Source: Candidatus Caldarchaeum sp. (GTDB lineage: Archaea > Thermoproteota > Nitrososphaeria_A > Caldarchaeales > Caldarchaeaceae). Taken from it: a stretch of 13,747 nt of DNA. The notes below the pieces were generated by a model, which had not been told where the DNA came from, did no database searches, and was given only the letters and a program-made list of their open reading frames with translations. Made by a program: the position numbers and the translations under genes. The stretch covers positions 1-13,747 of the forward strand of contig JAWBRA010000036.1 of NCBI GenBank assembly GCA_038844785.1. Direction: 5' to 3'. Below are positions 3 through 13,519 of this stretch, in pieces. Within the stretch, counting starts at the first letter, position 1, and each line of letters starts with the position of its first letter.

Positions 3-2216
3 AAATTCTACGTCAGGGTTGTTGACTGCTCCAGCCAGCAGCCTGTAGCGGGGGCCTCAGTCAACCTAGATAACCCGGGTCACAGAGCATCTTCAGTTAC
101 GAACATGACGGGCTACGCTGAGATAGAGGGTTACGCATGGTTCTACACCTACTACATTACTGCAAGCGGCTACAGGTTTACCTATGGTGAGAGAAGGTTC
201 TCGATAGGGGAGGTTTTCACAACATGCTTGTTCAGGGAGACTGGTGGGTTTTGGAGGGTTGTCTCAGACCTTCTCAGCTGGCAGGGAGACATACATGCCG
301 GAGGAGCTGGATGGGGATTGGTGAGGCTGAAGAACTTCGAGTCAGGAGTATTCAACATAACTAACATAGAGCTTATGGTTTCAGGATATGACAGGCCTGT
401 AGGGTTCTGGACATCTAATAGAGGAAAGATTCTCCCCAAGCTCCTCGACACATACTTCAACCTAACAGTCAAACCTCCTCAAGACTCTCCGGTCGGCAGG
501 CTTAAGGCCGAGCTGAGAATAAAAGCAGTCATAATAGGCGATGATGGGAGCAGGATAGGGCCTCTAACCCTCTTCACAGACCTAGACTACATCCTGATAA
601 GAGAGTTCAGAAGCTTCAACATAACAGTCCTAGACTACTGGGGTTTCAACCGCGTTCCCAATGCCTCAGCCACGCTTGTCAGCCAGCTTACAGGAGCATC
701 CTACCAGCTGTCGGGAAATGCTGAAGGCGTTGTTTCAGGCAGAAAGATTCCCGACGGAGTATATAGGATGCAGGTGAGATACACGTCGCCTTATGATAGG
801 GAAACATACGTTGTTTACGACAGGTTTCCCATGCTCGCAGACTTGGCCAGAGAGGGGTATGTCAAGACAGACCTGCACGAGGCTCATATAAAGCCCAGAG
901 ACCTTTCAGGCAGGCCTCTCAACGCCAGTGTTGCGCTTGGCAGGGTAATGGCTGTCGCCAAAACTGTCTCTAGGCCTTGGGGTGAGGAGGTAGCCGCAGT
1001 CTTCGTAAACGTTCCAGAAGGAGTTTATCCCGTGAGGGCTTTCTGGAAAGGTGTGGAAGTCTACAAGGGTGAGGTGAGGGTTGATGAGCCTTTAGCCAGA
1101 CCTGACCCGGGCGGCCTTCTCGAACCCGTCCTCGACGTGGGAGACATAGTAATCATCCTCAAGGATGCTGTGGGAAGAGGTTTGAAAACAAATGTAACAG
1201 TCAGCCTTAACGGCATGAACCAAACCGGCTTGAAGCAGGTGGTTTACACCCGTCTCCCAAGGGGCGAGCATACATTCACCGTTTCAACCTTCAACAGGCT
1301 GCTGGGAAGAGAGGTGAACGTTGGTACATTTACTTTCAGGATACCTGAGCACCATGGAGTCCATGAGGTAAGGCTGGGCATATTCGACGCCGTAATCAGG
1401 CTTCAGACAGCAGACGGAAGGCCTGCCCCAATAGAGTCTCTCCAAGTTGAGGGACGTGACTTCAAGGTGGTTAACGGAGAAGCTTCGGTCTCCGACATTA
1501 CCGTAGGAAGATACAGTATGAAGGCCGTGTATATGGGTGTGACTGTTCTCGACGACATGGTGGAGATAAACAACAGCGATGTAGTTGTCAGGACAAGCAT
1601 TCACAGCCTCAGGGCCAGCGTCCAAACAGTTGACGGAGAGCCTTTGGAGAAAGGGTTGTTTACAGTAGATGTCCGTGGTGAAAAGGTCACTGCCCAGATT
1701 GCAGGAGGAGCAGCATACATACCGTTCCTACCTGCTGGAAAGTTCCCGTTGAAAATATCTGTGGGCGGCCAAACCGTTTACGACGGTCTATTACAGGTTG
1801 ACGGGTTGGACAAGGTGATAATCGCTAACGCTGGAAGGCCTGTAGTTTACGTGGTTGACCAGAAAAGTATTCCCGTGGAATCCGCTGAGGTGGAAGTTGT
1901 AGATGTTGGAAAGGCCGTGACAGGTGTAAACGGCTCGGCGAAGCTAGGGCAGACACCTGTGAGAGAGCTTCCATACAGGGTTTTCTACAAGGGGCTTGAG
2001 ATGTCTTCAGGGATGCTTAAACCCGGAACGCCTGTGAAAACAGTCGTCAAGCTTGTCAATATAGCGGTCAGGGTTGTCAACGAGTTGGGTTCTCCAACAG
2101 ACTCCGACGTAGACCTTGTGAGAGGAGGAAGAACTATCGCAAGAGCTTCAGGCTCCGAGGTAAGGTTTGACGGAGTGCCTTCAGGAGGCTACAGCCTGAG
2201 TCACTCATGGACCTAA
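3..2216 (+). CDS. Large surface protein with tandem carboxypeptidase-regulatory-like beta-sandwich repeats (5'-partial, main body)
   Basis: The frame is open from the window edge (KFYVRVVDCSSQQPVAGASVNL precedes the ATG at 105). About 8 repeats begin with V.V.D..G.P...A.V (e.g. FNITVLDYWGFNRVPNASA, LRASVQTVDGEPLE, IAVRVVNELGSP) and contain P.G.Y-like motifs (IPDGVY, VPEGVY, VPSGGY). Many NxS/T sequons. Confidence 0.8.
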   Translation, partial: KFYVRVVDCSSQQPVAGASVNLDNPGHRASSVTNMTGYAEIEGYAWFYTYYITASGYRFTYGERRFSIGEVFTTCLFRETGGFWRVVSDLLSWQGDIHAGGAGWGLVRLKNFESGVFNITNIELMVSGYDRPVGFWTSNRGKILPKLLDTYFNLTVKPPQDSPVGRLKAELRIKAVIIGDDGSRIGPLTLFTDLDYILIREFRSFNITVLDYWGFNRVPNASATLVSQLTGASYQLSGNAEGVVSGRKIPDGVYRMQVRYTSPYDRETYVVYDRFPMLADLAREGYVKTDLHEAHIKPRDLSGRPLNASVALGRVMAVAKTVSRPWGEEVAAVFVNVPEGVYPVRAFWKGVEVYKGEVRVDEPLARPDPGGLLEPVLDVGDIVIILKDAVGRGLKTNVTVSLNGMNQTGLKQVVYTRLPRGEHTFTVSTFNRLLGREVNVGTFTFRIPEHHGVHEVRLGIFDAVIRLQTADGRPAPIESLQVEGRDFKVVNGEASVSDITVGRYSMKAVYMGVTVLDDMVEINNSDVVVRTSIHSLRASVQTVDGEPLEKGLFTVDVRGEKVTAQIAGGAAYIPFLPAGKFPLKISVGGQTVYDGLLQVDGLDKVIIANAGRPVVYVVDQKSIPVESAEVEVVDVGKAVTGVNGSAKLGQTPVRELPYRVFYKGLEMSSGMLKPGTPVKTVVKLVNIAVRVVNELGSPTDSDVDLVRGGRTIARASGSEVRFDGVPSGGYSLSHSWT

Positions 2217-2746: not shown

Positions 2747-3510
2747 TTAATTTTGCGTAGATATTTTGTTGTCCATAGCATGTTTAATCACCTCTATCAT
2801 TCCGAATCCTTGGGAGTTTTTGCTGCCGATTCCCGCTTCGTAGTCCATTGCGATGAGTTCTGGACTGCCCTGTATCTCGTAGGTTCCTGACCAGCTCTTT
2901 ATGACCGTGCCTTTAAAGACGTGGATGTGTTCCCGCGGCCTAGACCCCTGATGGGGTTTTATGCTGACATATCCTTTTAGCTCTTTGCCTGTGAGGGCCT
3001 GGATTTTTTCACCAGGTTTTTGCTAATCATGTCGCTGAACTCATCCTCAAAAGGCGAGTAATAATATGTCTTCTTTCCTCCATCTCCCGTCATAAGGGTG
3101 GAGTAGACCGTGATGGGGGAGAGACTTCTGCACAGGATTTTATCATTGATTTGTGGTCGTTCTGGGAGCTCCAGCGCGGTCACCCTCAGCTCTTCACCAT
3201 AGAGGTATACTTTGCCGTTGCTCAAAAAACCGTTTACAGCTTCCATGACAAACCTCTCCACCGGCGAGCTTATGCATAGCTTGATAGGCGGCTTGAAAAC
3301 TATTTCAGCACCATTCAAAACATACCTTCCGAGAAGACGGGAGAAAGTGAAGAGTTTGAAGCTTCTTTTACCCACCGTGAAACCCGCCTCATGTAAAAAC
3401 TTGCTGAAATCAGGTGAAAGCATCCTATAAATCAGCGATTGCACAGCATGGTTGTAGTCATGAGGAAGTTTTAAGGGCTCCGATGACGTGAACGATAACC
3501 AGAACCGCAT
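2747..3510 (-). pseudogene. cas6: CRISPR endoribonuclease Cas6, frameshifted at an A6 run (3004-3009)
   Basis: The N-terminal part has LPHDYNHAVQSLIY, FLHEAGF, FKLFTFSRL and LSPITVYST. Adding one A at GTG-AAA-AAA-TCC continues as IQALTGKELKG...YEAGIGSKNSQGFGMIEV, the Cas6 glycine-rich loop, to TAA at 2747-2749 (254 aa). Confidence 0.92.
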
Positions 3511-4453: not shown

Positions 4454-4933
4454 CTATGAAATCATCCATACGGATATTTTTCCGTCTGTTTTTGCGTATA
4501 TTTTTAGAGGCTCTGTCTTAGCGCCTCCCATTCCGGGCGAGCCGGCGGGCATTCCCGGGACGGCTATCCCGTCTAAAGTTGGTTTTTCTGAAAGGAGCTT
4601 TGCGATTGCTTCGACTGGTACATGGCCTTCGACAAAGTAGGAACCTGCTTGAGCTGTGTGGCAGCTGTAAAGCTCCTTTGGAACACCCAGCTTCTTTCTC
4701 ATGTTCTCCAGACCTGTGGCGTCGACTGTAACGGTGCGGAAGACAGCACCCCTGCTCCTGAGATAGGCTTCGTAGTCTTTGCAGCAGGGGCATTCCTCGG
4801 TTCTGTAGATTGTTAGCTCTACGCCAGAACCTGTGGTGGGTGTGTTTCCAGCCGTTGTCCAGGTCTGCAGCAGATATGTTGTTGAGACGACCGCTATGGC
4901 CAGCAGCGCCAGCGGAACAATCTTTCTCATCAT
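4454..4933 (-). CDS. copG: DUF411 / CopG-type copper-binding protein with N-terminal anchor
   Basis: CPCC, SCHTA, YFVEGHVP and GIAVPGMPAGSPGM signature motifs. The true start is MMRKIVPLALLAIAVV at 4933; the longer ORF-track extension overlaps the upstream gene. Confidence 0.88.
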   Translation of the reverse strand: MMRKIVPLALLAIAVVSTTYLLQTWTTAGNTPTTGSGVELTIYRTEECPCCKDYEAYLRSRGAVFRTVTVDATGLENMRKKLGVPKELYSCHTAQAGSYFVEGHVPVEAIAKLLSEKPTLDGIAVPGMPAGSPGMGGAKTEPLKIYAKTDGKISVWMIS

Positions 4934-4944
4934 CCCACCATCCG

Positions 4945-5331
4945 TTACTGTGGCTTCCACGTCAGCGCGAGTATTCCGCCTACCAGCGCTAGGAGAGCAC
5001 CTATGATGAAGCCTCCCATCCCGAAGATGCTGATTATCGAGAAGGCTAGTATGAGCGCTCCCCATGTGTGGGCTTGGCTTGGACGGCTTTGAAGCATCAA
5101 GGCGCTGGCTATGACGACTATTCCCGAGGCAAGACCTGTGAGCGAGAGGGCTGACCATGCCCAGGGCATCCACCATCCCATCATCATCCCAGGGCCCATC
5201 ATACCGCCCCAGTAGGCCATGCCACCCCACATCATCCACGCGGTCAGGCCAAACAACCCTCCAGCCAGTATGAGCACGCCCCCGACCAAGGATAGGATGA
5301 AGGCTGCCGTCGGTTTTTCCGCCGCCTTCAA
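4945..5331 (-). CDS. Small ~4-TM membrane protein with Met/Trp/Gly-rich loop
   Basis: Hydrophobic helices flank WMMWGGMAYWGGMMGPGMMMGWWM. TTG start immediately after the upstream stop. Confidence 0.8.
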   Translation of the reverse strand: MKAAEKPTAAFILSLVGGVLILAGGLFGLTAWMMWGGMAYWGGMMGPGMMMGWWMPWAWSALSLTGLASGIVVIASALMLQSRPSQAHTWGALILAFSIISIFGMGGFIIGALLALVGGILALTWKPQ

Positions 5332-5334
5332 CCA

Positions 5335-6060
5335 CTACTCCTCCATCTCTATCTCCTGTATGAATTGGCCGTGCCAGCTGTGGTACCAGACTTGGCCCGT
5401 GAAACCGTTTACGCTGAGCATCCCGTGAGTTCTTCCGCCGAGCTTGTAGTCCATGGTGTAGTAGCCGTAGAAAGTCATCGGATGCTCTACTTCAACGTTT
5501 CCGCCGAACCGGTTGGACAGATAGTTTAACGCAATCTCCTTGGCTTGTTCAGGGCTTACCGGCATGTTGGCCGTGGGAGTGTTATACCATCCCATCATAG
5601 CGTAATGCATGCCGTACTTTGTGTTCCACATCATGTTAGGGCCTGGCTCTGGGTATACGTAGCCTGTGTATGTGTTGACTAGGAGCTCGAAAGCCCCTAC
5701 GCCTGTGTCACGCTCGACAACTACGGCGTAGAAGTTGTACTGAAACTCCATGACCTCATGCAGCCTATAGTTTCCGCCAAGGCCTGCGACATACCTTTGC
5801 AAAACATCGACCGCCTGCTGTATTGTGAGCCTCCGGCCCGTGGGTGCTGCCACCCCTCCAAACCAGCCGAAGCACGGACACTGCCCCATCATCCCGCCGT
5901 CCATCATGTTAGGATACCAGCCGTTGAACGGTGTTTGCCGAGGCATCGCACGATACTGCTGTGCACCCCACCATGGCGGCAGCGCATAGGCAGCCAGCAG
6001 ACCCGCAGCCAGGACAGCCGTAGCCAACGCAGCCAACAAAAGAACCTGTTTGTTAACCAT
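5335..6060 (-). CDS. Exported Met/His-rich protein with two PepSY-like domains
   Basis: Signal/anchor helix, then MMDGGMMGQCPC. Two PepSY-like units (LTIQQAVDVL...LLVNTYTGYV and VSPEQAKEIA...LSVNGFTGQV), a PEPGPNMMWNTKYGMH linker and C-terminal YHSWHG. Confidence 0.8.
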   Translation of the reverse strand: MVNKQVLLLAALATAVLAAGLLAAYALPPWWGAQQYRAMPRQTPFNGWYPNMMDGGMMGQCPCFGWFGGVAAPTGRRLTIQQAVDVLQRYVAGLGGNYRLHEVMEFQYNFYAVVVERDTGVGAFELLVNTYTGYVYPEPGPNMMWNTKYGMHYAMMGWYNTPTANMPVSPEQAKEIALNYLSNRFGGNVEVEHPMTFYGYYTMDYKLGGRTHGMLSVNGFTGQVWYHSWHGQFIQEIEMEE

Positions 6061-6091
6061 TTCTGATCAGATACAAATCTCCTTGGAGCCG

Positions 6092-6127
6092 CTATAGGGT
6101 TTTCTTGAAACGGTCGTGAAACGGTCG
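6092..6127 (-). promoter_or_regulatory. Weak BRE/TATA (GAAAACCCTATAG) with an adjacent 11-bp tandem direct repeat (candidate operator)
   Basis: TGAAACGGTCG occurs at 6106-6116 and 6117-6127, a perfect tandem. It lies directly upstream of the TATA-like element, which is about 32 nt before ATG 6060. Confidence 0.65.
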
Positions 6128-6207
6128 AGCCCGCTCAACAAGGTATAAAAGCGGGAATACGGCGGCGAGTAAACCCTTAAAACCGGCTCATCGCCTAAGT
6201 TTGTAGA

Positions 6208-6687
6208 TTGTTTTCTGGCCGTCCCGCGAAGTTTCTGATGGTTTTTTCGCTGGCGGCTGGAGCCGCGTTGCTGGCAACAGCAGCTCTCAGCGTTTGGCAG
6301 CACGACGTCGTCATGGGCGGGATGATGAGGCAGATGATGGGCGGCGTTTTCCCCGGCATGATGCTATGGATGGTAACCCCGCTCATCATAGCTGCGGCGG
6401 TGCTTATGATACTTCCCGTAGCATTCTACATACTACTCGGAAGCCAAACAACAAGCATAACCGGGCTTACCGAAGAGGAGAAAGCAGTGGTTGACTACCT
6501 AACCCGTAACGGCGGAAGCTCCGAACAGAGGGCGATAGCTAAAACCTTAGGGTTTTCACGTCTAAAAACACATCGTCTAATAGCGTCGCTGCGCCGCAGA
6601 AACGTTGTGGAAGTCGAGCCCCGCGGAAGAACAAACATAGTTAAACTTAAGAATTTTCAGAAAACCAGCGCTGAGAATCTTGTTTAA
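6208..6687 (+). CDS. Membrane-tethered winged-HTH transcriptional regulator (2 TM + Met-rich loop)
   Basis: TM1 FLMVFSLAAGAALLATAALSVW, loop HDVVMGGMMRQMMGGVFPGMM, TM2, then wHTH LTEEEKAVVDYL...QRAIAKTLGFSRLKTHRLIASLRRRNVVEVEPRGRTNIVKL. AAACCCTTAAAA (6171-6182) lies about 25 nt before TTG 6208; ATG 6238 is an alternative start. Confidence 0.85.
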   Translation: MFSGRPAKFLMVFSLAAGAALLATAALSVWQHDVVMGGMMRQMMGGVFPGMMLWMVTPLIIAAAVLMILPVAFYILLGSQTTSITGLTEEEKAVVDYLTRNGGSSEQRAIAKTLGFSRLKTHRLIASLRRRNVVEVEPRGRTNIVKLKNFQKTSAENLV

Positions 6688-7007
6688 ATCGGTTTAAGAG
6701 TGTTTTTGATGATACGGAAATATTTTTCCGCAGCTTCTTTCCCTACCACGTGGAACTCGAACGGCTCTTCAAAACCAGCTCGCCAAAGCTGTGCAATAAC
6801 CTCCGCAGGATTTAGGTCGGTGACGATCAGAACATCTACATCGCTGATCATAGAATGTCCCCCACGCGCAGCCGAGCCGAACAGATAGAGCTTCGAGTTC
6901 TCGTCCAGCTTAAGCATAAAACTCTTCAACCCACATAGATGTTTGTCAAGGTTTCTGAAGATCTCCTTTCTCCGTTTCGCTCTTTCAACCAGTATGCTGT
7001 CTGACAA
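6684..7007 (-). CDS. Minimal nucleotidyltransferase (MNT antitoxin)
   Basis: LYLFGSAARG...SDVDVLIV polymerase-beta motif, 107 aa, overlapping the upstream HEPN gene. Confidence 0.9.
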   Translation of the reverse strand: MSDSILVERAKRRKEIFRNLDKHLCGLKSFMLKLDENSKLYLFGSAARGGHSMISDVDVLIVTDLNPAEVIAQLWRAGFEEPFEFHVVGKEAAEKYFRIIKNTLKPI

Positions 7008-7377
7008 AGCCTACGACCTCTTCATAAAACCTTATGTGACTGTTGGCCTCCTCCTTGGTGAATTCACGTGGAAAACACCGCGATGTGATGTAAGCATCCT
7101 CGAGGGAAGAAAACTCAACAACCCGTTCTTCTGCAAACTTTTCGAAAACGCCCCTTTTGTCCAAGCATTCGCCCAACAGGATGAAGAGCCCTCTTAACGT
7201 ATGGGTTTTGGGGAACTCAACACCGTTTTCGAGCAGCTTCGCCTTCAAAAACAGCTTCAGCGACTGCTCCGAGCTGAAAACAACCATGTCGTAATCTGCT
7301 CGGGACATGTGGAAATCAGCCGCCGCTCTAAACTTTTCAGACCTCCTTAGGAGGGTGAGAATTTCATCTTTTCGCAA
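6985..7377 (-). CDS. HEPN domain protein (toxin of HEPN-MNT pair)
   Basis: EQSLKLFLKAKL, FPKTHTLRGL and LEDAYITSRC (usually SRY) motifs. Likely TTG start at 7377, about 30 nt after AAAAACATAATAG; GTG 7422 is the longest-ORF start. Confidence 0.88.
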   Translation of the reverse strand: MRKDEILTLLRRSEKFRAAADFHMSRADYDMVVFSSEQSLKLFLKAKLLENGVEFPKTHTLRGLFILLGECLDKRGVFEKFAEERVVEFSSLEDAYITSRCFPREFTKEEANSHIRFYEEVVGFVRQHTG

Positions 7378-7425
7378 GTTTTCTAGACAGAACGTCGTTG
7401 CAACAGCTATTATGTTTTTCACGGT

Positions 7426-8370
7426 TTACGACGTCAGCAGCATGACTATCCTCAGCCAATCGTCCTCCGTCAAAGTTCCAAACCTTTTTTCGTAGAGGAT
7501 TTCACCCGAGGACGATATTCCGAAAATCGTCTCCTGCGTTATGACTCTTAAGGCTACTAGGAATTCGAGGTTTGGATGCGTCACTATCCAGTCGCCGCTG
7601 GCGTTATGCTGGTCGAGGAACCTCTGGATTTTCACGGCCGTGTCGCCGGGGTCGAAGCTTGTGAGGAAGACAGTGACTTTATGCTGAAAACGTTTGTAAG
7701 CGTTGCTGAGGCTGGTGACGTTTTTGCTGCACGTGGGACACCATGTGGCGAAGAAAACCAGCAGGACAGGTTTTCCCCGTGAAAGAACTTCTGAGACCGT
7801 TATTTCCCGTCCGTCAAGAGTCTTTAGCTTGATTTTGAAAGCGTCTGCAGCACTCTCCCTGCCGTGAGCCTCATGACCATTGTTTGGGGCTTCGAGAAAA
7901 TTCTCAACCACTGCGTCCCATCCTACAACATCGCCGCCGTGCTTCCTAGCGAACTCAACGGCCGATGTAAACGATTTGAATGCAATCAAGCCGTGACGCA
8001 TGGGTGTGATGATGTCGGAGCCTTTGACGTACCAGGCTGAAGAAGCTTCAACGGCCCCTGCGCCGTCGAAGCTGTAAACCATTATCTTGTCGATTTTTGA
8101 GACGGGCCAGACTCCTTGAACAGGTTTTATTACGCCCTTGAAGCTTAGGTAGTGTATTAGCATGCAGCCGACGTCATTGTAGACAAGCCTTCTGCCGTCG
8201 ACGACCATCTCAGCCGCAAACTCCAGCCTCCTGACCTCCAGACCGCAGTAGCTACATTTTTCCCCAAGGACCATGCTGTCTGCGTTTGATACAAATCGTC
8301 TGAACAGAAAATATGCTGCTGTCCCAGCCGCTGCGAAGCCTACAGAAAATAGAAAAGCCCTCCGTCTCAT
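7426..8370 (-). CDS. Tat-exported NosL-like copper chaperone fused to a TlpA/redoxin domain
   Basis: MRRRAFL twin-arginine signal. NosL motifs CSYCGL, NDVGCM and AWYVKGSDIITPMRHGLIAF. Linker GHEAHG. Thioredoxin-fold GKPVLLVFFATWCPTC. Confidence 0.85.
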   Translation of the reverse strand: MRRRAFLFSVGFAAAGTAAYFLFRRFVSNADSMVLGEKCSYCGLEVRRLEFAAEMVVDGRRLVYNDVGCMLIHYLSFKGVIKPVQGVWPVSKIDKIMVYSFDGAGAVEASSAWYVKGSDIITPMRHGLIAFKSFTSAVEFARKHGGDVVGWDAVVENFLEAPNNGHEAHGRESAADAFKIKLKTLDGREITVSEVLSRGKPVLLVFFATWCPTCSKNVTSLSNAYKRFQHKVTVFLTSFDPGDTAVKIQRFLDQHNASGDWIVTHPNLEFLVALRVITQETIFGISSSGEILYEKRFGTLTEDDWLRIVMLLTS

Positions 8371-8371
8371 T

Positions 8372-8824
8372 CTACGGCCGGCCGACGACCTCAACCTTCC
8401 CCGTCATCCATGGATGCAGCGTGCACATGTATTCGTAGACGCCCGGAGAGGTGAACGTGTAGCGGACTGTCTGTCCAGGTTGTAGGATGTAGTCAAAGAG
8501 CCTTGCAGCGCTTGTAACAGTATGTGGTACCGTGTCTTCGTTCACCCATGTCACCGTGTTATTCACCCCTATGACCAGCCTGACGTACTGAGGGCTAAAA
8601 GTCATGCTGGTGTTTCTGCTGGAGCCCAAGGGGTTCGACACAATCACTTCAGCGGCTGGAGCAGTCTGCGTAAGTGTTGTTGTCACAGTGGGTTTTGCCG
8701 GCGTAGTGGTAGTCTGTGTAGGTGTTGTTTGTAGGGTGGGCTGCTGCCTGGGTATGAAAAACAGCATGACGGCGGATAGCACGCCTATGCCCGCTAACAG
8801 TGCAAGAACATGGGCTTTTTTCAA
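8372..8824 (-). CDS. Membrane-anchored type-1 blue copper protein (plastocyanin/amicyanin-like cupredoxin)
   Basis: TM anchor and Thr/Pro linker, then FSPQ...TVTWVNEDTVPHTVT...PGVYEYMCTLHPWMTGKV (His plus C-x2-H-x2-M ligands). Confidence 0.92.
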   Translation of the reverse strand: MKKAHVLALLAGIGVLSAVMLFFIPRQQPTLQTTPTQTTTTPAKPTVTTTLTQTAPAAEVIVSNPLGSSRNTSMTFSPQYVRLVIGVNNTVTWVNEDTVPHTVTSAARLFDYILQPGQTVRYTFTSPGVYEYMCTLHPWMTGKVEVVGRP

Positions 8825-8826
8825 CG

Positions 8827-9843
8827 CTATTCCTCAATTATTATCAGCCCTATCATGCCGGCGTCGGCGTGGCTTACTACATGGCAGTGGAAGAGATACA
8901 CGCCCGGCCTGTTGTAGACTAGGATGACTGTGTCAGCTGCTCCGGGGACTAGCGGGACGATCTGCGCTGGCCAGCTTCTTCCGCCGAGAACGTACTGGGA
9001 GCGGTGGTCGCCTACGTGGGCGTGGAAGCTGTGGTAAAGGTCTCCTATGTTGATTATGTGGAACCTCAGCCGTTCGCCGAGCTTAGCCTTGAAGACGGGC
9101 ATGGATTTGTTGAAGAGCTGAGCCACACCCTCTAAGCCTTTAAGCTGTGGGTAGATTGTGCTTTTTCCCGCGTAAACTTTCTCGAGCTCGGGCTCTCCGC
9201 CTGGAACACCCATCCCGTTCATGATATAGAAAGGCCTCTGCCCAGTTCCCACGATGGCTCCTCTGACGGCCGGCGTCTCAGCCATGAAGACGACGAAATT
9301 CCTCGACGGAGGCTCGTCTATCTCATCCACTATTATGGCTCCATACAGCCCCATCAGCATGTGGTCTACTATCCTAAGCCCGCCGTCAGCTGAGTGGCAG
9401 TGGTAGTACCATATCCCAGGCTTTGAGGCCGGCCATTCATAGACCCATTCTCCCCCCGGCGGAATCATCGAGCCCTTGCCTACTCCCGTGATTATGTTGA
9501 CTTGGCTGCCGTCATGTTTCAAGTCGTAGTAGGGTAGGTGCGGGTGGAGGCTGTGGGTTAGGTTGAGCTTGTTGACGGCTCTAATCCTTATGATGTCTCC
9601 GACCTTGACGTGAATTGTTGGGCCGGGAACTGTGCCGTTATAGGTCCATGCATTCCAGACAACGCCTGGAGCTATCTGTATCTGCGCTGGCTCTATGAAG
9701 ATTGTGTACTCGCGTATGTTTGACGGCTGGGCGGCTGCTTTGAAAAGGTTTGGAAAATACGTGGGCGCCCAGAAAATCGCCGTAGCATAGCCTAGAAGGA
9801 ATCCGCCAGCTATCAGCCCTGCCAATATGTAGGCGGTTTTCAT
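8827..9843 (-). CDS. Two-domain multicopper oxidase with T1 ligands in both domains
   Basis: Domain 1: YNGTVPGPTI, HSLHPH, WYYHCH-x10-HMLMGLYG. Domain 2: HSFHAH, YLFHCHVVSHADAGMIG. ATG 9843 is preceded by AGGAG and followed by a TM anchor. Confidence 0.92.
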   Translation of the reverse strand: MKTAYILAGLIAGGFLLGYATAIFWAPTYFPNLFKAAAQPSNIREYTIFIEPAQIQIAPGVVWNAWTYNGTVPGPTIHVKVGDIIRIRAVNKLNLTHSLHPHLPYYDLKHDGSQVNIITGVGKGSMIPPGGEWVYEWPASKPGIWYYHCHSADGGLRIVDHMLMGLYGAIIVDEIDEPPSRNFVVFMAETPAVRGAIVGTGQRPFYIMNGMGVPGGEPELEKVYAGKSTIYPQLKGLEGVAQLFNKSMPVFKAKLGERLRFHIINIGDLYHSFHAHVGDHRSQYVLGGRSWPAQIVPLVPGAADTVILVYNRPGVYLFHCHVVSHADAGMIGLIIIEE

Positions 9844-9874
9844 GTTGCTCCTGCTGGGCGGCGGAAATTTTAGG

Positions 9875-9894
9875 TTGACGGGCTGCCAGGTCAA
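9875..9894. promoter_or_regulatory. Inverted repeat TTGAC-N10-GTCAA in the divergent MCO/HTH-10 promoter
   Basis: TTGAC 9875-9879 and GTCAA 9890-9894 lie immediately upstream of a weak minus-strand TATA-like CCTAAAATTT (9865-9874). Confidence 0.45.
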
Positions 9895-9933: not shown

Positions 9934-10545
9934 ATGCTCGAGCTTTCTCTGAAGGTTCAGCTTTCATGTCCTTGGATGAGCGAATTGAGGAAGCATGTCT
10001 CTAACTTCCGCATCGTCAGCTGCAGGCCTGTTTACCGCGGAGGCGGAGCCAGCGCCGTCGTAGCCTTCCGGAGCGGCTTGGACCCTGCAGAGCTGCAGGC
10101 ATTTCTGCAGAAGCTGCCGTATGTTACTAAGGCTGAGTTTAAGAAGACAGGGAAAAACAACGGCGTAGGAATTGTAAGCTCGTTGCTGTGTCCATGCAGT
10201 AAACTGGGCATACCGTATGAGCATGTTTTGAAGATTGTTGCCGAAGAAGGATGGGTGAACTTCCATATCTTGTTGTCCGGCGAACAAGAGCTGAAGGAGT
10301 TTATGGAGAACATCAGGTCAACCGGGCTGAAGCACAAGCTGGAAAAAGTGAGAATCTTCAAACCCAGCGTCTTCCTCACACCAAGGCAGGAGCAGGTTCT
10401 TGCCCACGCATATGTCAAAGGCTACTTCAGTTATCCAAGACAGCTGACCGTAAGCCAGTTGGCGAAGGATTTCGGAGTCTCAACCCCCACGTATACCGAG
10501 CTTCTTAGAAGAGCCTTGTCTAAGCTGGTGCTGAAATGGTTTTAG
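9934..10545 (+). CDS. HTH-10 (Bat/NarO/DmsR-type) transcriptional regulator
   Basis: C-terminal LTPRQEQVLAHAYVKGYFSYPRQLTVSQLAKDFGVSTPTYTELLRRALSKL. N-terminal domain has C12, C30 and C86-P-C88. Confidence 0.92.
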   Translation: MLELSLKVQLSCPWMSELRKHVSNFRIVSCRPVYRGGGASAVVAFRSGLDPAELQAFLQKLPYVTKAEFKKTGKNNGVGIVSSLLCPCSKLGIPYEHVLKIVAEEGWVNFHILLSGEQELKEFMENIRSTGLKHKLEKVRIFKPSVFLTPRQEQVLAHAYVKGYFSYPRQLTVSQLAKDFGVSTPTYTELLRRALSKLVLKWF

Positions 10546-10618
10546 CAGCTGGACAGCCTTGTTTTTCAACCTTTAAATTGGGCTTATCCTGCTATAATTT
10601 TGCGATAAGTGGGAGGCC

Positions 10619-10837
10619 ATGGTCAAACACATACTCGTCACATTGTCCGACGAACAGTACAGGTGCGTGTCATTCCTGCGGAACAAGATGGGGTCGAGCG
10701 ACGCTGAGGTGCTTAGGAACATCTTCCTCTCATGGCTTGCTGAAAAAGCGATGATAGGGTGTTGGGAGACAGACAGAGCCGTGGAGGAATTCCAGAAACG
10801 CTGGATAGAGAAGAAAGAATCAAAAACAACCGTCTAG
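10619..10837 (+). CDS. Small ribbon-helix-helix DNA-binding protein
   Basis: KHILVTLSDEQYRCV...MGSSDAEVLRNIFLSWL fits a beta-alpha-alpha pattern. One nucleotide separates its stop from the cysteine synthase ATG. Confidence 0.7.
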   Translation: MVKHILVTLSDEQYRCVSFLRNKMGSSDAEVLRNIFLSWLAEKAMIGCWETDRAVEEFQKRWIEKKESKTTV

Positions 10838-10838
10838 A

Positions 10839-11780
10839 ATGGATAATAAACACATGAGTCCAAGCAGCGCCGCTGTCAGCAGCGTAAAAGGAAAGGGGGT
10901 AGCTGAGCTAATAGGATGGACGCCGCTGATCCGTTTAAAACCCTTCGAGAAACCCGGCGTAAAGATTTTCGCAAAATGCGAGATGTTCAACCCCGGCGGG
11001 TCTGTCAAGGACAGGCCAGCCCTCTACATAATCCTCGATGCTGTGCGGCGCGGTAGGCTGGCTTCCGGCAAAACCCTCCTCGACGCCACGTCGGGGAACA
11101 CAGGCGTTGCCTACGCTATGCTGGCCGCTTCGATGGGTTACACGGTGAAGATGGTGGCGCCGTCCAACATCTCGAAGACGAAGCTGGCTAAGATGAGGCT
11201 TTTCGGAGCCGAGGTAGTGTTGACCGACGCTTTAGAGGGCATGGACGGAGCCATAAAGAAAGCAAGGGAAATTTGCGAGACGGAGCCCGACAAATACTTT
11301 TACGCAGACCAGTACAGCAACCCCGCCAACCCCCAGGCCCATTACCAGACCACAGGTCCCGAGATCTGGTCGCAGACCGCTGGGAAAATCACCCATTTTG
11401 TCGCAGGAGTAGGTACTTCAGGCACGCTGCAGGGGACAGCCCTCTTCCTCAAAGAAAGAAACCCGAGGATTAAGGTTGTTGAGGTGCAGCCTGAGAACGA
11501 GTTCCACGGCATAGAGGGGCTTAAATACATGGCCGCAGCGCTGCGCCCACCCCTTTACAGGGAGGACATAGCCGACGCCCGCTACTTCATAAAAACCGAG
11601 GAAGCCGTTGAAACGACTAAAAAGCTTCGTATGTTGGGAGGTGTTCCGGCAGGCGTCTCCGGCGGAGCTGCTTTAGCCGCAGCCCTAAAGCTTGCGGAAG
11701 AAATCGACGAGGGAGTTGTTGTCGTAATCTTGCCCGACGGCATCGCCAACCATCTGGAGGAAAGGATGGTCAGCCCATGA
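10839..11780 (+). CDS. cysM: PLP-dependent cysteine synthase, CysM/O-phosphoserine sulfhydrylase type
   Basis: IGWTPL, NPGGSVKDR (PLP lysine), DATSGNTG, DQYSNPANPQAHYQTTGPEI and GVGTSGT. Adjacent to JAMM and Ubl genes. Confidence 0.9.
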   Translation: MDNKHMSPSSAAVSSVKGKGVAELIGWTPLIRLKPFEKPGVKIFAKCEMFNPGGSVKDRPALYIILDAVRRGRLASGKTLLDATSGNTGVAYAMLAASMGYTVKMVAPSNISKTKLAKMRLFGAEVVLTDALEGMDGAIKKAREICETEPDKYFYADQYSNPANPQAHYQTTGPEIWSQTAGKITHFVAGVGTSGTLQGTALFLKERNPRIKVVEVQPENEFHGIEGLKYMAAALRPPLYREDIADARYFIKTEEAVETTKKLRMLGGVPAGVSGGAALAAALKLAEEIDEGVVVVILPDGIANHLEERMVSP

Positions 11781-12217
11781 AACTCGTCATCAAACGCGAG
11801 GTTTTAGACACCATTTTGGCGAGATGCGTTGAAGGATATCCGTACGAGACAGCGGGCCTCATGCTCGGCTACGGCGGCAGCAGAAAAGTGGTCGACTCCC
11901 TTCCCACGGCCAACGTCCATGAAGGCGACAGGAGAGTCAGGTACAGGATAGACCCGATGGAGTATTACAGGGCTGAAAAAACAGCGGAAGAACACGGTCT
12001 TCAGGTCGTCGGCGTCTACCACTCCCATCCAGACGTTGCAGCCCGTCCATCCACTTACGACCTTGAATACGCCCTCCCCGGCTGGTCATACCTGATTGTA
12101 TCGGTCACGAAAGGCAAGGTCTTAGACTACGCCAGCTGGCATGTCGTCGACAAAAAAGGCTTTAAAGAGTATGTTAGGGAAGAATTAACAATAGTTGATT
12201 CTGATAAACCCGAATAA
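11777..12217 (+). CDS. mec: JAMM/MPN+ (M67) metallopeptidase, Mec-like
   Basis: YPYETAG (catalytic Glu) and YHSHPDVAARPSTYD (HxH-x7-S-x2-D). ATGA overlap with the cysM stop. Confidence 0.9.
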   Translation: MKLVIKREVLDTILARCVEGYPYETAGLMLGYGGSRKVVDSLPTANVHEGDRRVRYRIDPMEYYRAEKTAEEHGLQVVGVYHSHPDVAARPSTYDLEYALPGWSYLIVSVTKGKVLDYASWHVVDKKGFKEYVREELTIVDSDKPE

Positions 12218-12241
12218 ATGTGTTTAGCGGCTGAACACACG

Positions 12242-12249
12242 TATAAATA
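12242..12249 (+). promoter_or_regulatory. TATA box upstream of the Ubl fusion gene
   Basis: TATAAATA about 28 nt before ATG 12277, in an AT-rich intergenic gap. Confidence 0.55.
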
Positions 12250-12276
12250 TAACGCCTTAAATATTTTTGGGAGCGT

Positions 12277-12819
12277 ATGCCTGTAAAGGTCTATCTTCCT
12301 ACACCGTTGCGCCAGTACGCCGACGGCCGTGACATGGTTGAGGTTGAAGGCTTGACTGTTGGGGAGGTGTTAAACAAGCTGGTCCAGCGGTTCACGGCCC
12401 TACAGAAGCATCTATTCACCGAAACAGGATCTGTTAGAAGCTTTGTCAACGTGTTCCTGAACGACGAGGATATCCGCTATCTTGATGGGATGCAGACGAA
12501 AATAAAGGACGGCGACGTCATATACATCATCCCCTCTATTGCCGGCGGCCTGAGCATAGCCCAGCCCTCTTCGGTTACCCGGAGGCTTGGCAGGACTATG
12601 AAAGAACACGGCCGCATCACCGTGCCCGTAAAGCTTTTAAAAAAGGCTAAGAAGAAAGAGGTTGCGCTCATAATAGATGACGTGAAATATGTCTTCGAGC
12701 CCGACAAGTATGGGAGAATCTACATCCCTCCCACGCTCCGCGATAAGCTGGCCAACATGTCGGCCTTCGAATTCTCCCTCGTAGACGGCGAGCTGCTGCT
12801 GAAGTTCAGAAGGTTTTAA
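12277..12819 (+). CDS. CysO/MoaD/SAMP-like ubiquitin-fold sulfur carrier with internal GG, fused to an AbrB/MraZ-like domain
   Basis: Residues 1-91: VKVYLPTPLRQYADG...FVNVFLNDEDIRYLDG...DGDVIYIIPSIAGG. An 89-aa in-frame tail has two swapped-hairpin motifs, EHGRITVP and DKYGRIYIP. Confidence 0.9.
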   Translation: MPVKVYLPTPLRQYADGRDMVEVEGLTVGEVLNKLVQRFTALQKHLFTETGSVRSFVNVFLNDEDIRYLDGMQTKIKDGDVIYIIPSIAGGLSIAQPSSVTRRLGRTMKEHGRITVPVKLLKKAKKKEVALIIDDVKYVFEPDKYGRIYIPPTLRDKLANMSAFEFSLVDGELLLKFRRF

Positions 12820-12842
12820 AACAACTTATACACTGCCTCACC

Positions 12843-13232
12843 ATGCCGAAGTACGTAATTACTCTGAATGCTGATGACGTGGAGGTTTCATACGAGGCTG
12901 CGTCGAAGGATGAGGCTTTAGCCCATTTTGACGAATTGATGGAGCTGTACAGGACTGTTTTGGACAGAATTAGAACTGAGCCGCGGATGAAAGTCTCTAA
13001 GCGAAGGGGAAGGTCTGAGGCTGTTGAGGTCTTGAAAATCCTAGAGGAAAAGCTGATCCCCTCTTCTTTCTTCAGCCAGCCAAGGTCAACGGCAGAGGTG
13101 AGGGAAAAGATAGCCGAGCTTGAAGGTATCAGGTTCCAGAGCAGGAAGGTCAGCCAAGCCCTTGGAATACTCTTCAAGAAGAACGTTCTCTCCCGCATTG
13201 GTTTAAAAGGAGATTATAAATATTATAAGTAA
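12843..13232 (+). CDS. Hypothetical protein with C-terminal winged helix
   Basis: 129 aa. FFSQPRSTAEVREKI...VSQALGILFKKNVLSRIG...YKY has a wHTH pattern, preceded by a basic linker. Confidence 0.7.
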   Translation: MPKYVITLNADDVEVSYEAASKDEALAHFDELMELYRTVLDRIRTEPRMKVSKRRGRSEAVEVLKILEEKLIPSSFFSQPRSTAEVREKIAELEGIRFQSRKVSQALGILFKKNVLSRIGLKGDYKYYK

Positions 13233-13296
13233 AGCCGCACACAACATACCCATAGAAACTAGGATAGAAGAGGCGTATTACTTGGCTGACAGTACT
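13233..13296 (+). mobile_element. Second IS6 right-end remnant
   Basis: GAGGCGTATTACTTGGCTGACAGTAC (13270-13295) matches 3887-3912 at 23/26 and is preceded by the same CACAACA (HN) remnant. Confidence 0.75.
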
Positions 13297-13519
13297 AGGG
13301 GCTGGCGGTTCGATGGGCTAACACTTCCCCTAGACGCTTGGCTAGATAGTCTCTATCCCTAAAGGCTCAACCCAGCAAAAAGACCATACCTGAACAACCT
13401 ACTCATGCAGTCAACTAAATAATCGAAGACATACACAAACCGTCAAACCATTCCTAAACTACAGACCCAACAAACACACCTAAACTGAAGGTGAAGGTAA
13501 GGAAAAATAGGGGAGGTTT

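Follow-up and report, generated by a model that had tools for sequence, protein, structure and literature searches.

The DNA analysed here is a contig of 13,747 nucleotides (nt; the window) from Candidatus Caldarchaeum sp. (contig C36 of assembly G000; 1.74 Mb in 57 contigs, 95.5% complete). It encodes a 180-residue protein in which a sulfur carrier of the CysO type, one of the ubiquitin-like proteins (Ubls), is joined in frame to a small AbrB/MraZ-like domain, beside genes for a JAMM metalloprotease and a CysM-type enzyme. Taking the evidence together, we consider it probable that this genus-wide fusion was formed from neighbouring genes, is made as a precursor processed by the JAMM, and has been tolerated rather than selected. 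That such a precursor exists and is cleaved by its JAMM is known from the main texts of publications on C. subterraneum, another species of the genus. What appears to be new is that the tail is of the AbrB/MraZ type and that it was, until recently, a neighbour gene of its own that overlapped the carrier gene.

The two domains of the fusion protein

The carrier half was assigned with family models and by structure comparison. Pfam ThiS (PF02597) matched residues 5-91 with an E-value of 9.8e-13 (48.9 bits, cut-off 22.5), and the N-terminal half also passed the NCBIfam models SAMP1 (62 bits, cut-off 60) and moaD_arch (54.5 bits, cut-off 49.5). In the PDB the best sequence matches were 4n6e_B at E 8.8e-18, a CysO-type protein that partners BexX, and 3dwg_C at E 1.8e-16, which is CysO of M. 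tuberculosis. The beta-grasp fold is confident in the AlphaFold model, with a predicted local distance difference test score (pLDDT) of 88-96 over residues 1-80, and Foldseek aligned it to the same two chains (TMt 0.90, E 3.8e-9 for 4n6e_B; TMt 0.86 for 3dwg_C). With CysO proteins as its closest solved relatives, and a CysM-type enzyme and a JAMM encoded next to it, the domain is a carrier of the CysO type. It has an isoelectric point (pI) of 5.2.

Members of the ThiS/MoaD family act through a free C-terminal Gly-Gly (GG). In the window protein the sequence IPSIAGG ends at residue 91 (nt 12547-12549) and 89 further residues follow in frame, placing the GG at residues 90-91 of 180. A free GG therefore requires proteolysis. 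In an alignment of carriers G91 never varies, at least 90% of the rows have G90, and the CysO-like core is conserved.

The C-terminal half matched Pfam MraZ in two stretches (E 2.2e-7, 31.2 bits, cut-off 23), each spanning only ~20 of the 72 profile positions; the tail on its own scored 29.4 bits against the same cut-off. Its two half-domains align locally with a score of 29, versus 17.9 ± 3.5 for shuffled sequences, and 16 of 2000 shuffles reached that score. A single-sequence search of the tail against the PDB returned as its sole match a de novo TIM barrel (E 0.0097), which we judged spurious, and a profile of 42 tails was used instead. This profile gave 10 matches at E ≤ 10. AbrB, Abh and SpoVT occupy the top five places (E 0.0063-0.47) and MraZ the four after them. 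In the profile alignment D143-K-Y-G-R147 of the tail lies opposite D11-E-L-G-R15 of AbrB, and every one of the 42 tails has both D143 and R147. In SpoVT, AbrB and MraZ, DNA binding is attributed to the DXXXR motif (PMC12957436), and R15 of AbrB is described as crucial for the interaction with DNA (bioRxiv 10.1101/2024.08.12.607668). The tail contains 19 Lys and Arg versus 10 Asp and Glu residues.

AlphaFold models agreed with this assignment. The full-length model (73-row alignment; mean pLDDT 85.2) contains two confident domains. Its predicted template modelling score (pTM) of 0.49 is expected for two domains on a flexible linker. Residues 89-96, including the GG, have pLDDT values below 50, and linker residues 92-100 are variable in sequence, constant in length and predicted to be disordered. 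A model of the tail alone, built from 42 sequences (pLDDT 88.0, pTM 0.74), runs strand, helix, short strand, helix, hairpin and then strand, helix, hairpin. The best Foldseek rows for this model were LlaJI.R1-N, plant B3/ARF domains, MraZ (1n0e, 9qlg, 9r4j) and PhS018, with probabilities of 0.80-0.99. VIA-align of the tail against 48,161 representative chains returned 90 at Z ≥ 2 and 5 at Z ≥ 5. Its top 14 rows, with Z from 5.9 to 3.1, are all DNA-binding pseudobarrels (B3, MraZ, BfiI-C, NgoAVII, EcoRII-N, LlaJI and UbaLAI), in agreement with the profile matches of the sequence to AbrB and MraZ.

Like AbrB/SpoVT/MazE, MraZ and B3/EcoRII-N proteins, the tail carries the GRxxxP/DxxxR motif and, as predicted, two beta-alpha-beta repeats. 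As in MraZ and B3, a single chain appears to form the whole barrel; one chain of MraZ is reported to make up the domain for which AbrB needs a dimer (PMC12957436). From the profile matches and the predicted fold, the tail is probably a minimal single-chain barrel of the AbrB/MraZ type, and we regard DNA binding by it as somewhat more probable than its absence. The original prediction had described a CysO-like carrier precursor with an internal GG and an AbrB/MraZ-like tail with two GRxxxP motifs. Both assignments are borne out, and every particular of the underlying observation (open reading frame (ORF), GG position, motifs and neighbouring genes) was correct.

Other carriers with extensions were encountered. 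A MoaD-related protein of Thermus thermophilus (PDB 1v8c, 168 residues) resembles the window protein in reaching ...VAGG at residue 87 and continuing for ~80 residues. Its C-terminal part was not among the matches listed for the tail-only model by Foldseek or VIA-align, which suggests that its second domain is probably another fold. Three CysO-like carriers of other lineages (P0016, P0028 and P0055; Terriglobia where named) have 8 to ~25 residues after the GG. These extensions end in a conserved C-I-C-S/R motif, and such Cys-x-Cys tails may, as judged from their sequences, mark another family of carrier precursors. A further protein of 188 residues (P0013) consists of tandem CysO-like beta-grasp domains, the first ending in GG and the second in GG+SGK.

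Distribution and origin of the fusion

We refer to the genus of the window as g1, to its sister genera as g2, g3 and g4, to their common family as f1 and to a distant family as f2. A word-indexed search of 5.8 billion proteins returned 1068 relatives of the fusion protein at E ≤ 0.001. Among the 120 matches listed, 12 clusters span the whole query with both Pfam families at 75-100% identity and, where named, come from Candidatus Caldarchaeum sp., a name borne by close clusters of 76-91% identity; the remainder match the carrier half only. An exhaustive phmmer search with the tail against 1.84 billion representatives gave four matches at E ≤ 0.001, of which the fused cluster and one free-standing protein of 90 residues are genuine. 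The other two (3107 and 551 residues) are repeat proteins of unrelated Pfam content and were set aside as spurious. A profile search with the tail found 31 small proteins of 48-93 residues; those with a named source belong to Nitrososphaerota or Caldiarchaeum and are labelled 'hypothetical' or have automatic MraZ/PrlF names.

Within the order, 31 of 76 genomes contained a match to the tail. Of the 12 other g1 genomes, 11 share with the window 88-89 in-frame residues past the GG; in the remaining one, which is 76% complete, the tail search found no match. The five loci of g2-g4 have a different arrangement. There, the carrier ends in GG+SYD, GG, GG+VGA (twice) or GG+EGHA, 0-4 residues past the GG, and a separate ORF of 87-92 residues encodes the AbrB-like protein. 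The separate genes overlap by 17, 4 or 8 nt, and in one g2 genome TAG plus one codon lie between them in the same frame. Across 11 distinct g1 sequences the codon after the GG is ATG in two, TTG in four, CTG in three (the window included), TTA in one and GCG in one. The first linker codon is thus probably the decayed start codon of a once-separate downstream gene, as this comparison of codons suggests.

We calculated a maximum-likelihood tree of 42 tails, seven of them fused, and rooted it on the long branch to the f2-type family. The fused tails form one clade (support 100/99) nested within the free-standing forms of f1, and sequences of g2 type, g3 and g4 are its successive outgroups. The f2-type relatives are 22-33% identical, with no carrier gene adjoining in the two loci read. 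Since the fused clade is nested among free forms and the sister genera are unfused, the fusion is, on this phylogeny, a single derived event at the level of the genus. Orthologs that stop at the GG, with AbrB as a separate gene, had been named as the pattern that would speak against the original prediction; this pattern holds for g2-g4 but not for g1, which is fused in 12 genomes. The separate genes of the sister genera indicate that fusion is not a design principle of the system.

Two trivial explanations were considered. An assembly or frameshift artefact is ruled out by the same frame in the window, in 11 other genomes and in independent contigs from RNA libraries. An internal start as a general route to an unfused tail is rejected because the codon after the GG is a canonical start in only 6 of the 11 g1 sequences. 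Note that Met108 of the window protein is Val in the other ten g1 sequences (GTG in two), and a start at this position would truncate the first strand.

Protease, neighbouring genes and promoter

The gene upstream of the carrier (Table 1) encodes a JAMM protease that matched Pfam Prok-JAB (E 4.8e-20, 72 bits, cut-off 25) and has an intact zinc site (E24 and H82-S-H84-x7-S92-x2-D95). Its start overlaps the stop of the preceding cysM-like gene by 4 nt. The product of the latter matched Pfam PALP (E 1.3e-70), and its PDB matches are CysM and CysK enzymes, including M. tuberculosis CysM (3dwg_A, E 5e-52). The proposed adjacency of JAMM and CysM genes to the carrier gene is therefore correct.

Table 1. 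Features of the fusion locus in the window
Feature	Position	Strand	Basis or remark
Fusion gene: sulfur-carrier Ubl, linker and AbrB/MraZ-like domain	12277..12819	+	180 residues; stop codon included
CysO/SAMP1-type beta-grasp carrier domain, residues 1-91	12277..12549	+	Pfam ThiS, NCBIfam SAMP1, PDB matches
GG codons of the carrier domain, residues 90-91	12544-12549	+	
Linker, residues 92-100	12550..12576	+	low pLDDT, alignment, junction DNA
Predicted single-chain two-repeat AbrB/MraZ-type swapped-hairpin pseudobarrel, residues 101-180, pI 10.1	12577..12816	+	Pfam, profile, predicted model
GRITVP motif, residues 112-117	12610-12627	+	
GRIYIP motif, residues 146-151	12712-12729	+	
TATA-like box TATAAATA, ~31 nt 5' of carrier ATG	12242-12249	+	sequence; feature span 12242..12252
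JAMM/MPN+ metalloprotease gene	11777..12217	+	Pfam Prok-JAB, zinc motif
CysM/CysK-family pyridoxal phosphate enzyme (cysteine synthase type)	10839..11780	+	Pfam PALP, PDB matches
72-residue ORF	10619..10837	+	no family match
129-residue ORF	12843..13232	+	no Pfam or NCBIfam match

The genes around the fusion fall into two modules. Module A consists of an HTH_10 regulator, the 72-residue ORF, CysM and JAMM, and is found together in all four additional loci (G010, G015, G016 and G017). Module B consists of the carrier, the AbrB-like protein, fused or not, and the 129-residue ORF. A adjoins B in both g2 loci and in 9 of the 11 other g1 loci; of the remaining two, one has no A upstream and one is cut short by a contig end. 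The JAMM is tied most tightly to CysM, which fits, by analogy, a Mec-like role in a CysO-CysM pathway.

The enzymology of the CysO-CysM-Mec pathway was reportedly worked out by Burns in 2005. The window resembles the M. tuberculosis CysO-CysM-Mec+ system in that the carrier is closest to CysO and a CysM-family enzyme and a JAMM are encoded alongside, and most g1 genomes also encode an activating enzyme (E1) of ThiF+rhodanese length. In contrast, M. tuberculosis CysO ends at the GG, where the window carrier is followed by a whole folded domain, and the window enzymes score below the NCBIfam cut-offs for cysM (322 bits, cut-off 394) and desampylase (JAMM, 71 bits, cut-off 130). The arrangement also resembles the operons of ThiS/MoaD, JAB and cysteine synthase genes of types 4c/4d of Iyer et al. 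2006 (PMC1779556).

The carrier gene had been proposed to possess its own TATA box, and a TATA-like TATAAATA does precede its ATG. All 15 related carrier upstream regions, including those without a JAMM upstream, have an A/T box about as far from the start codon. Beyond this box, little conservation was seen by eye in these regions, in which no motif search was run.

For expression, contigs of three metatranscriptomic runs and one DNA run were compared with positions 10500-13300. One RNA-library contig of 612 nt covers 12298-12899 with seven differences and extends across the GG junction and the stop codon into the first part of the 129-residue ORF; an RNA contig of a second study covers 12458-12615 and spans the junction as well. 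Among the contig pieces listed, none lies over 12098-12285 (the JAMM 3' end and the intergenic region), which says nothing about transcript ends. Contigs of one RNA-library run and of one DNA run lack one base at 10836, in the stop codon of the 72-residue ORF before the cysM start; this is probably strain variation.

The 72-residue ORF is always directly upstream of cysM. It is 81-91% identical across the four genera, versus 60-70% for CysM and 54-68% for JAMM, and gave no Pfam or NCBIfam match; from its sequence the product may be a ribbon-helix-helix protein. The stretch just ahead of its ATG contains a TATA-like TTTAAAT (10572-10578) and, after it, the inverted repeat CTTATC (10583-10588)...GATAAG (10604-10609). 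A/T boxes with imperfect or different inverted repeats precede the ATG in four of five related loci, while G017 differs. The repeat at 10583-10609 is a candidate operator, perhaps for the 72-residue protein itself.

The 129-residue ORF is the conserved downstream neighbour of the fusion in 9 of 11 other g1 loci (absent in G011; one contig edge) and is also present in g3, in g4 and, behind an inserted GAPDH-like gene, in one of the two g2 loci. For a winged-helix fold there is no more than a weak lead: in ESM Atlas, Penicillinase_R stood at rank 14 with 36% of members, which does not suffice to name the family, and otherwise only Nitrososphaerota clusters labelled 'hypothetical protein' were found. 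Elsewhere in the window, upstream of the HTH_10 regulator, are a Cas6 gene (2977-3510, minus strand), a HEPN-domain gene (6985-7422, minus strand) and a copper-handling cluster (4454-9894, minus strand) of a multicopper oxidase, a cupredoxin, a NosL-thioredoxin fusion and a DUF411 protein.

Probable processing of the precursor and possible roles of the tail

The precursor of C. subterraneum is already in print. Nunoura 2011 (PMC3082918) lists two Ubls of prokaryote type, CSUB_C0702 and CSUB_C1603, with 89 and 12 residues after the GG, so that the concern in the original prediction that such a precursor might have been noted before was well founded. Fuchs 2018 (PMC6043591) synthesised Csub_C0702, Csub_C1603 and Csub_C0703 (CsJAMM). 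According to its main text, CsJAMM cleaves the C0702 precursor in vitro, an Rpn11 homolog does not, and C0702 served as CsJAMM substrate in inhibitor assays. This ortholog pair shares with the window the 89-residue extension, the gene order and a JAMM with a neighbouring locus tag, a likeness drawn from the published descriptions. The proposal that the neighbouring JAMM matures the carrier thus has in vitro support from the orthologs.

The main texts of PMC3082918 and PMC6043591 use none of the words AbrB, MraZ and DNA-binding and thus leave the 89 residues unidentified; nor do these texts describe an origin of the tail from a separate neighbour gene. We found no mention of CSUB_C0702 in the open-access literature or bioRxiv beyond these two papers. 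Keyword searches of the same sources, one of them blunt in that 'ThiS' also matched 'this', gave no described carrier-AbrB fusion among the papers listed.

Eukaryotic ubiquitin-ribosomal protein precursors (UBA52, RPS27A) likewise join ubiquitin to a basic protein of nucleic-acid-binding type and are cut by a protease after the GG. By analogy, the window protein would be a Ubl in frame with a small, very basic protein, separated from it by a protease after the GG. It differs from UBA52 and RPS27A in its independent origin, in the Ubl family, in the use of a JAMM rather than a cysteine deubiquitinase, and in its restriction to one archaeal genus. A further parallel is the MoaD-MoaE fusion DR0402 of D. 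radiodurans, which is reported to be cleaved by DRJAMM; a related archaeal pair is SAMP1 and HvJAMM1 of H. volcanii (PMC11237513, PMC8832034, PMC4443979). In these fusions, as in the window, a carrier Ubl is in frame with the product of a neighbouring gene and a JAMM/MPN+ protease frees the GG. In contrast to the enzymatic partner MoaE, the protein fused here, which is small, basic and of the AbrB/MraZ type, is not known to take part in sulfur transfer.

We propose that the fusion arose once, in the ancestor of g1, when the stop/start overlap of two adjacent, tightly coupled genes was lost. The protein would be made as a precursor, which the JAMM encoded upstream would cut after Gly91. The exposed GG terminus could then be adenylated and thiocarboxylated by a MoeZ-type E1, and the thiocarboxylated carrier would be used by the adjacent CysM-type enzyme for cysteine synthesis and possibly for protein modification. 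For each carrier, one AbrB-like protein of ~9-10 kDa would be freed; it is most likely a DNA binder, and so, presumably, are its free-standing orthologs. Of the five unfused carriers, four have 3-4 residues after the GG, suggesting that trimming after the GG probably predates the fusion. An in-frame fusion could be tolerated because a JAMM is already associated with the carrier pathway in this family and this trimming was probably in place, and would probably not have been selected for a new mode of regulation.

Several observations weigh against this proposal. For how far and exactly where C0702 is cleaved, the source is the main text of Fuchs 2018 (PMC6043591), and the proteins assayed were from C. 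subterraneum rather than from the window. JAMM and CysM are encoded apart from the carrier in one g1 genome (G010), in g3 and in g4, so that the genomic link between protease and precursor is not obligatory. The RNA-library contigs may carry contaminating DNA and cannot prove a single transcript. No Foldseek match to the tail model reached E ≤ 0.001 and no VIA-align match Z ≥ 8, and such middling Z values can reflect a common arrangement. Unlike the AbrB and MraZ families, to which its sequence similarity is marginal (best profile E 0.006), the tail has KxxxR (K109xxxR113) instead of DxxxR in the first repeat. It is also shorter than MraZ (~80 versus ~150 residues) and lacks the flanking helices that mediate oligomerisation of MraZ, which makes the DNA affinity of the monomeric barrel uncertain.

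A further point against it concerns the E1. In the G000 assembly, searches with PF00899 and, by tblastn, with the 389-residue protein of a relative detected no ThiF+rhodanese-length (MoeZ-type) enzyme; the only E1 there is of the ubiquitin type (C9:28218-29117), beside another JAB gene. The assembly thus offers no MoeZ-type candidate for activating the carrier. Of the 12 other g1 genomes, 9 encode a ThiF-family E1 (frame of ~385-420 residues, ~300 bits). G009, the nearest relative, is without an E1 of MoeZ length as well, but is only 82% complete. The absence from G000 may reflect an assembly gap or loss.

Alternatively, the fusion could be adaptive, as originally proposed: the tethered AbrB-like domain would be inactive and would be freed 1:1 by the JAMM, coupling maturation of the carrier to transcription of the carrier and cysteine genes, with autoregulation at the carrier promoter. 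The fold class of the tail, its DxxxR motif and a charge typical of DNA binders would suit such a regulator, as would the carrier gene's own conserved TATA-like box and the retention of the fusion, with a linker of constant length, throughout all but one of the g1 genomes searched. Moreover, in 5 of the 11 distinct g1 sequences the codon after the GG is no canonical start, indicating that the tail is made there only within the precursor. However, the same gene set is unfused in three sister genera, where overlapping or abutting genes suggest near-equimolar synthesis without a proteolytic gate, and the carrier upstream regions show, by eye, little conservation apart from the TATA-like box. We regard proteolytically gated gene regulation as possible but rather unlikely, and do not favour it.

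Less likely still, the tail might not be a DNA-binding regulator but serve the carrier pathway as a protein partner, for example as adaptor or chaperone or by capping the carrier, the E1 or CysM, and the fusion would then reflect a physical interaction, as for MoaE fused to MoaD. Barrels of the cradle-loop type also occur in substrate-binding domains that do not bind DNA, and in each of the family's four genera the genes for carrier and tail lie next to each other. Known natural carrier fusions, such as MoaD-MoaE and ThiS-ThiG, join functional partners (PMC1779556; PMC11237513). Against a partner role, the free-standing f2 relatives are not beside a carrier gene in the two loci read, the invariant DxxxR and the pI of the tail fit nucleic-acid binding, and the low full-length pTM gives no confident packing between the domains. 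A complex prediction of carrier domain (1-91) and tail scored 0.00 against a mark of 0.32, evidence neither way.

It is very improbable that the protein stays uncleaved in vivo, with the beta-grasp domain as sensor or interaction module of a DNA-binding protein: the three further ThiS-family genes of the G000 genome, whose products end in GG+FT, GG and GG, could take over sulfur carrying, and the missing MoeZ-type E1 would fit, but the ortholog is cut in vitro by the adjacent JAMM (PMC6043591), the GG and the CysO-like core are conserved, the junction is a predicted disordered linker, as expected of a protease site, and CysM and JAMM still adjoin the carrier in most other g1 loci.

What the finding means depends on the tail. 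JAMM-cleaved fusions of a carrier with a partner, such as MoaD-MoaE, are already known, whereas the identity and origin of this tail appear undescribed. If the tail is an ordinary neighbour that was fused neutrally, the result is a tidy annotation and no more. If gated regulation were true, each matured carrier would deliver one regulator to the promoters of the carrier and cysteine genes, and the system would be a prokaryotic counterpart of ubiquitin-fusion precursors, with a proteolytic gate inside a sulfur-carrier system. The recombinant C. subterraneum pair described in the literature makes a test of DNA binding cheap. The fused and unfused versions in sister genera constitute a natural experiment on whether a Ubl tether changes the activity of a small protein of DNA-binding type. 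The case also shows that Ubl-fusion precursors can arise by simple loss of a stop codon where a GG-specific protease is already present.

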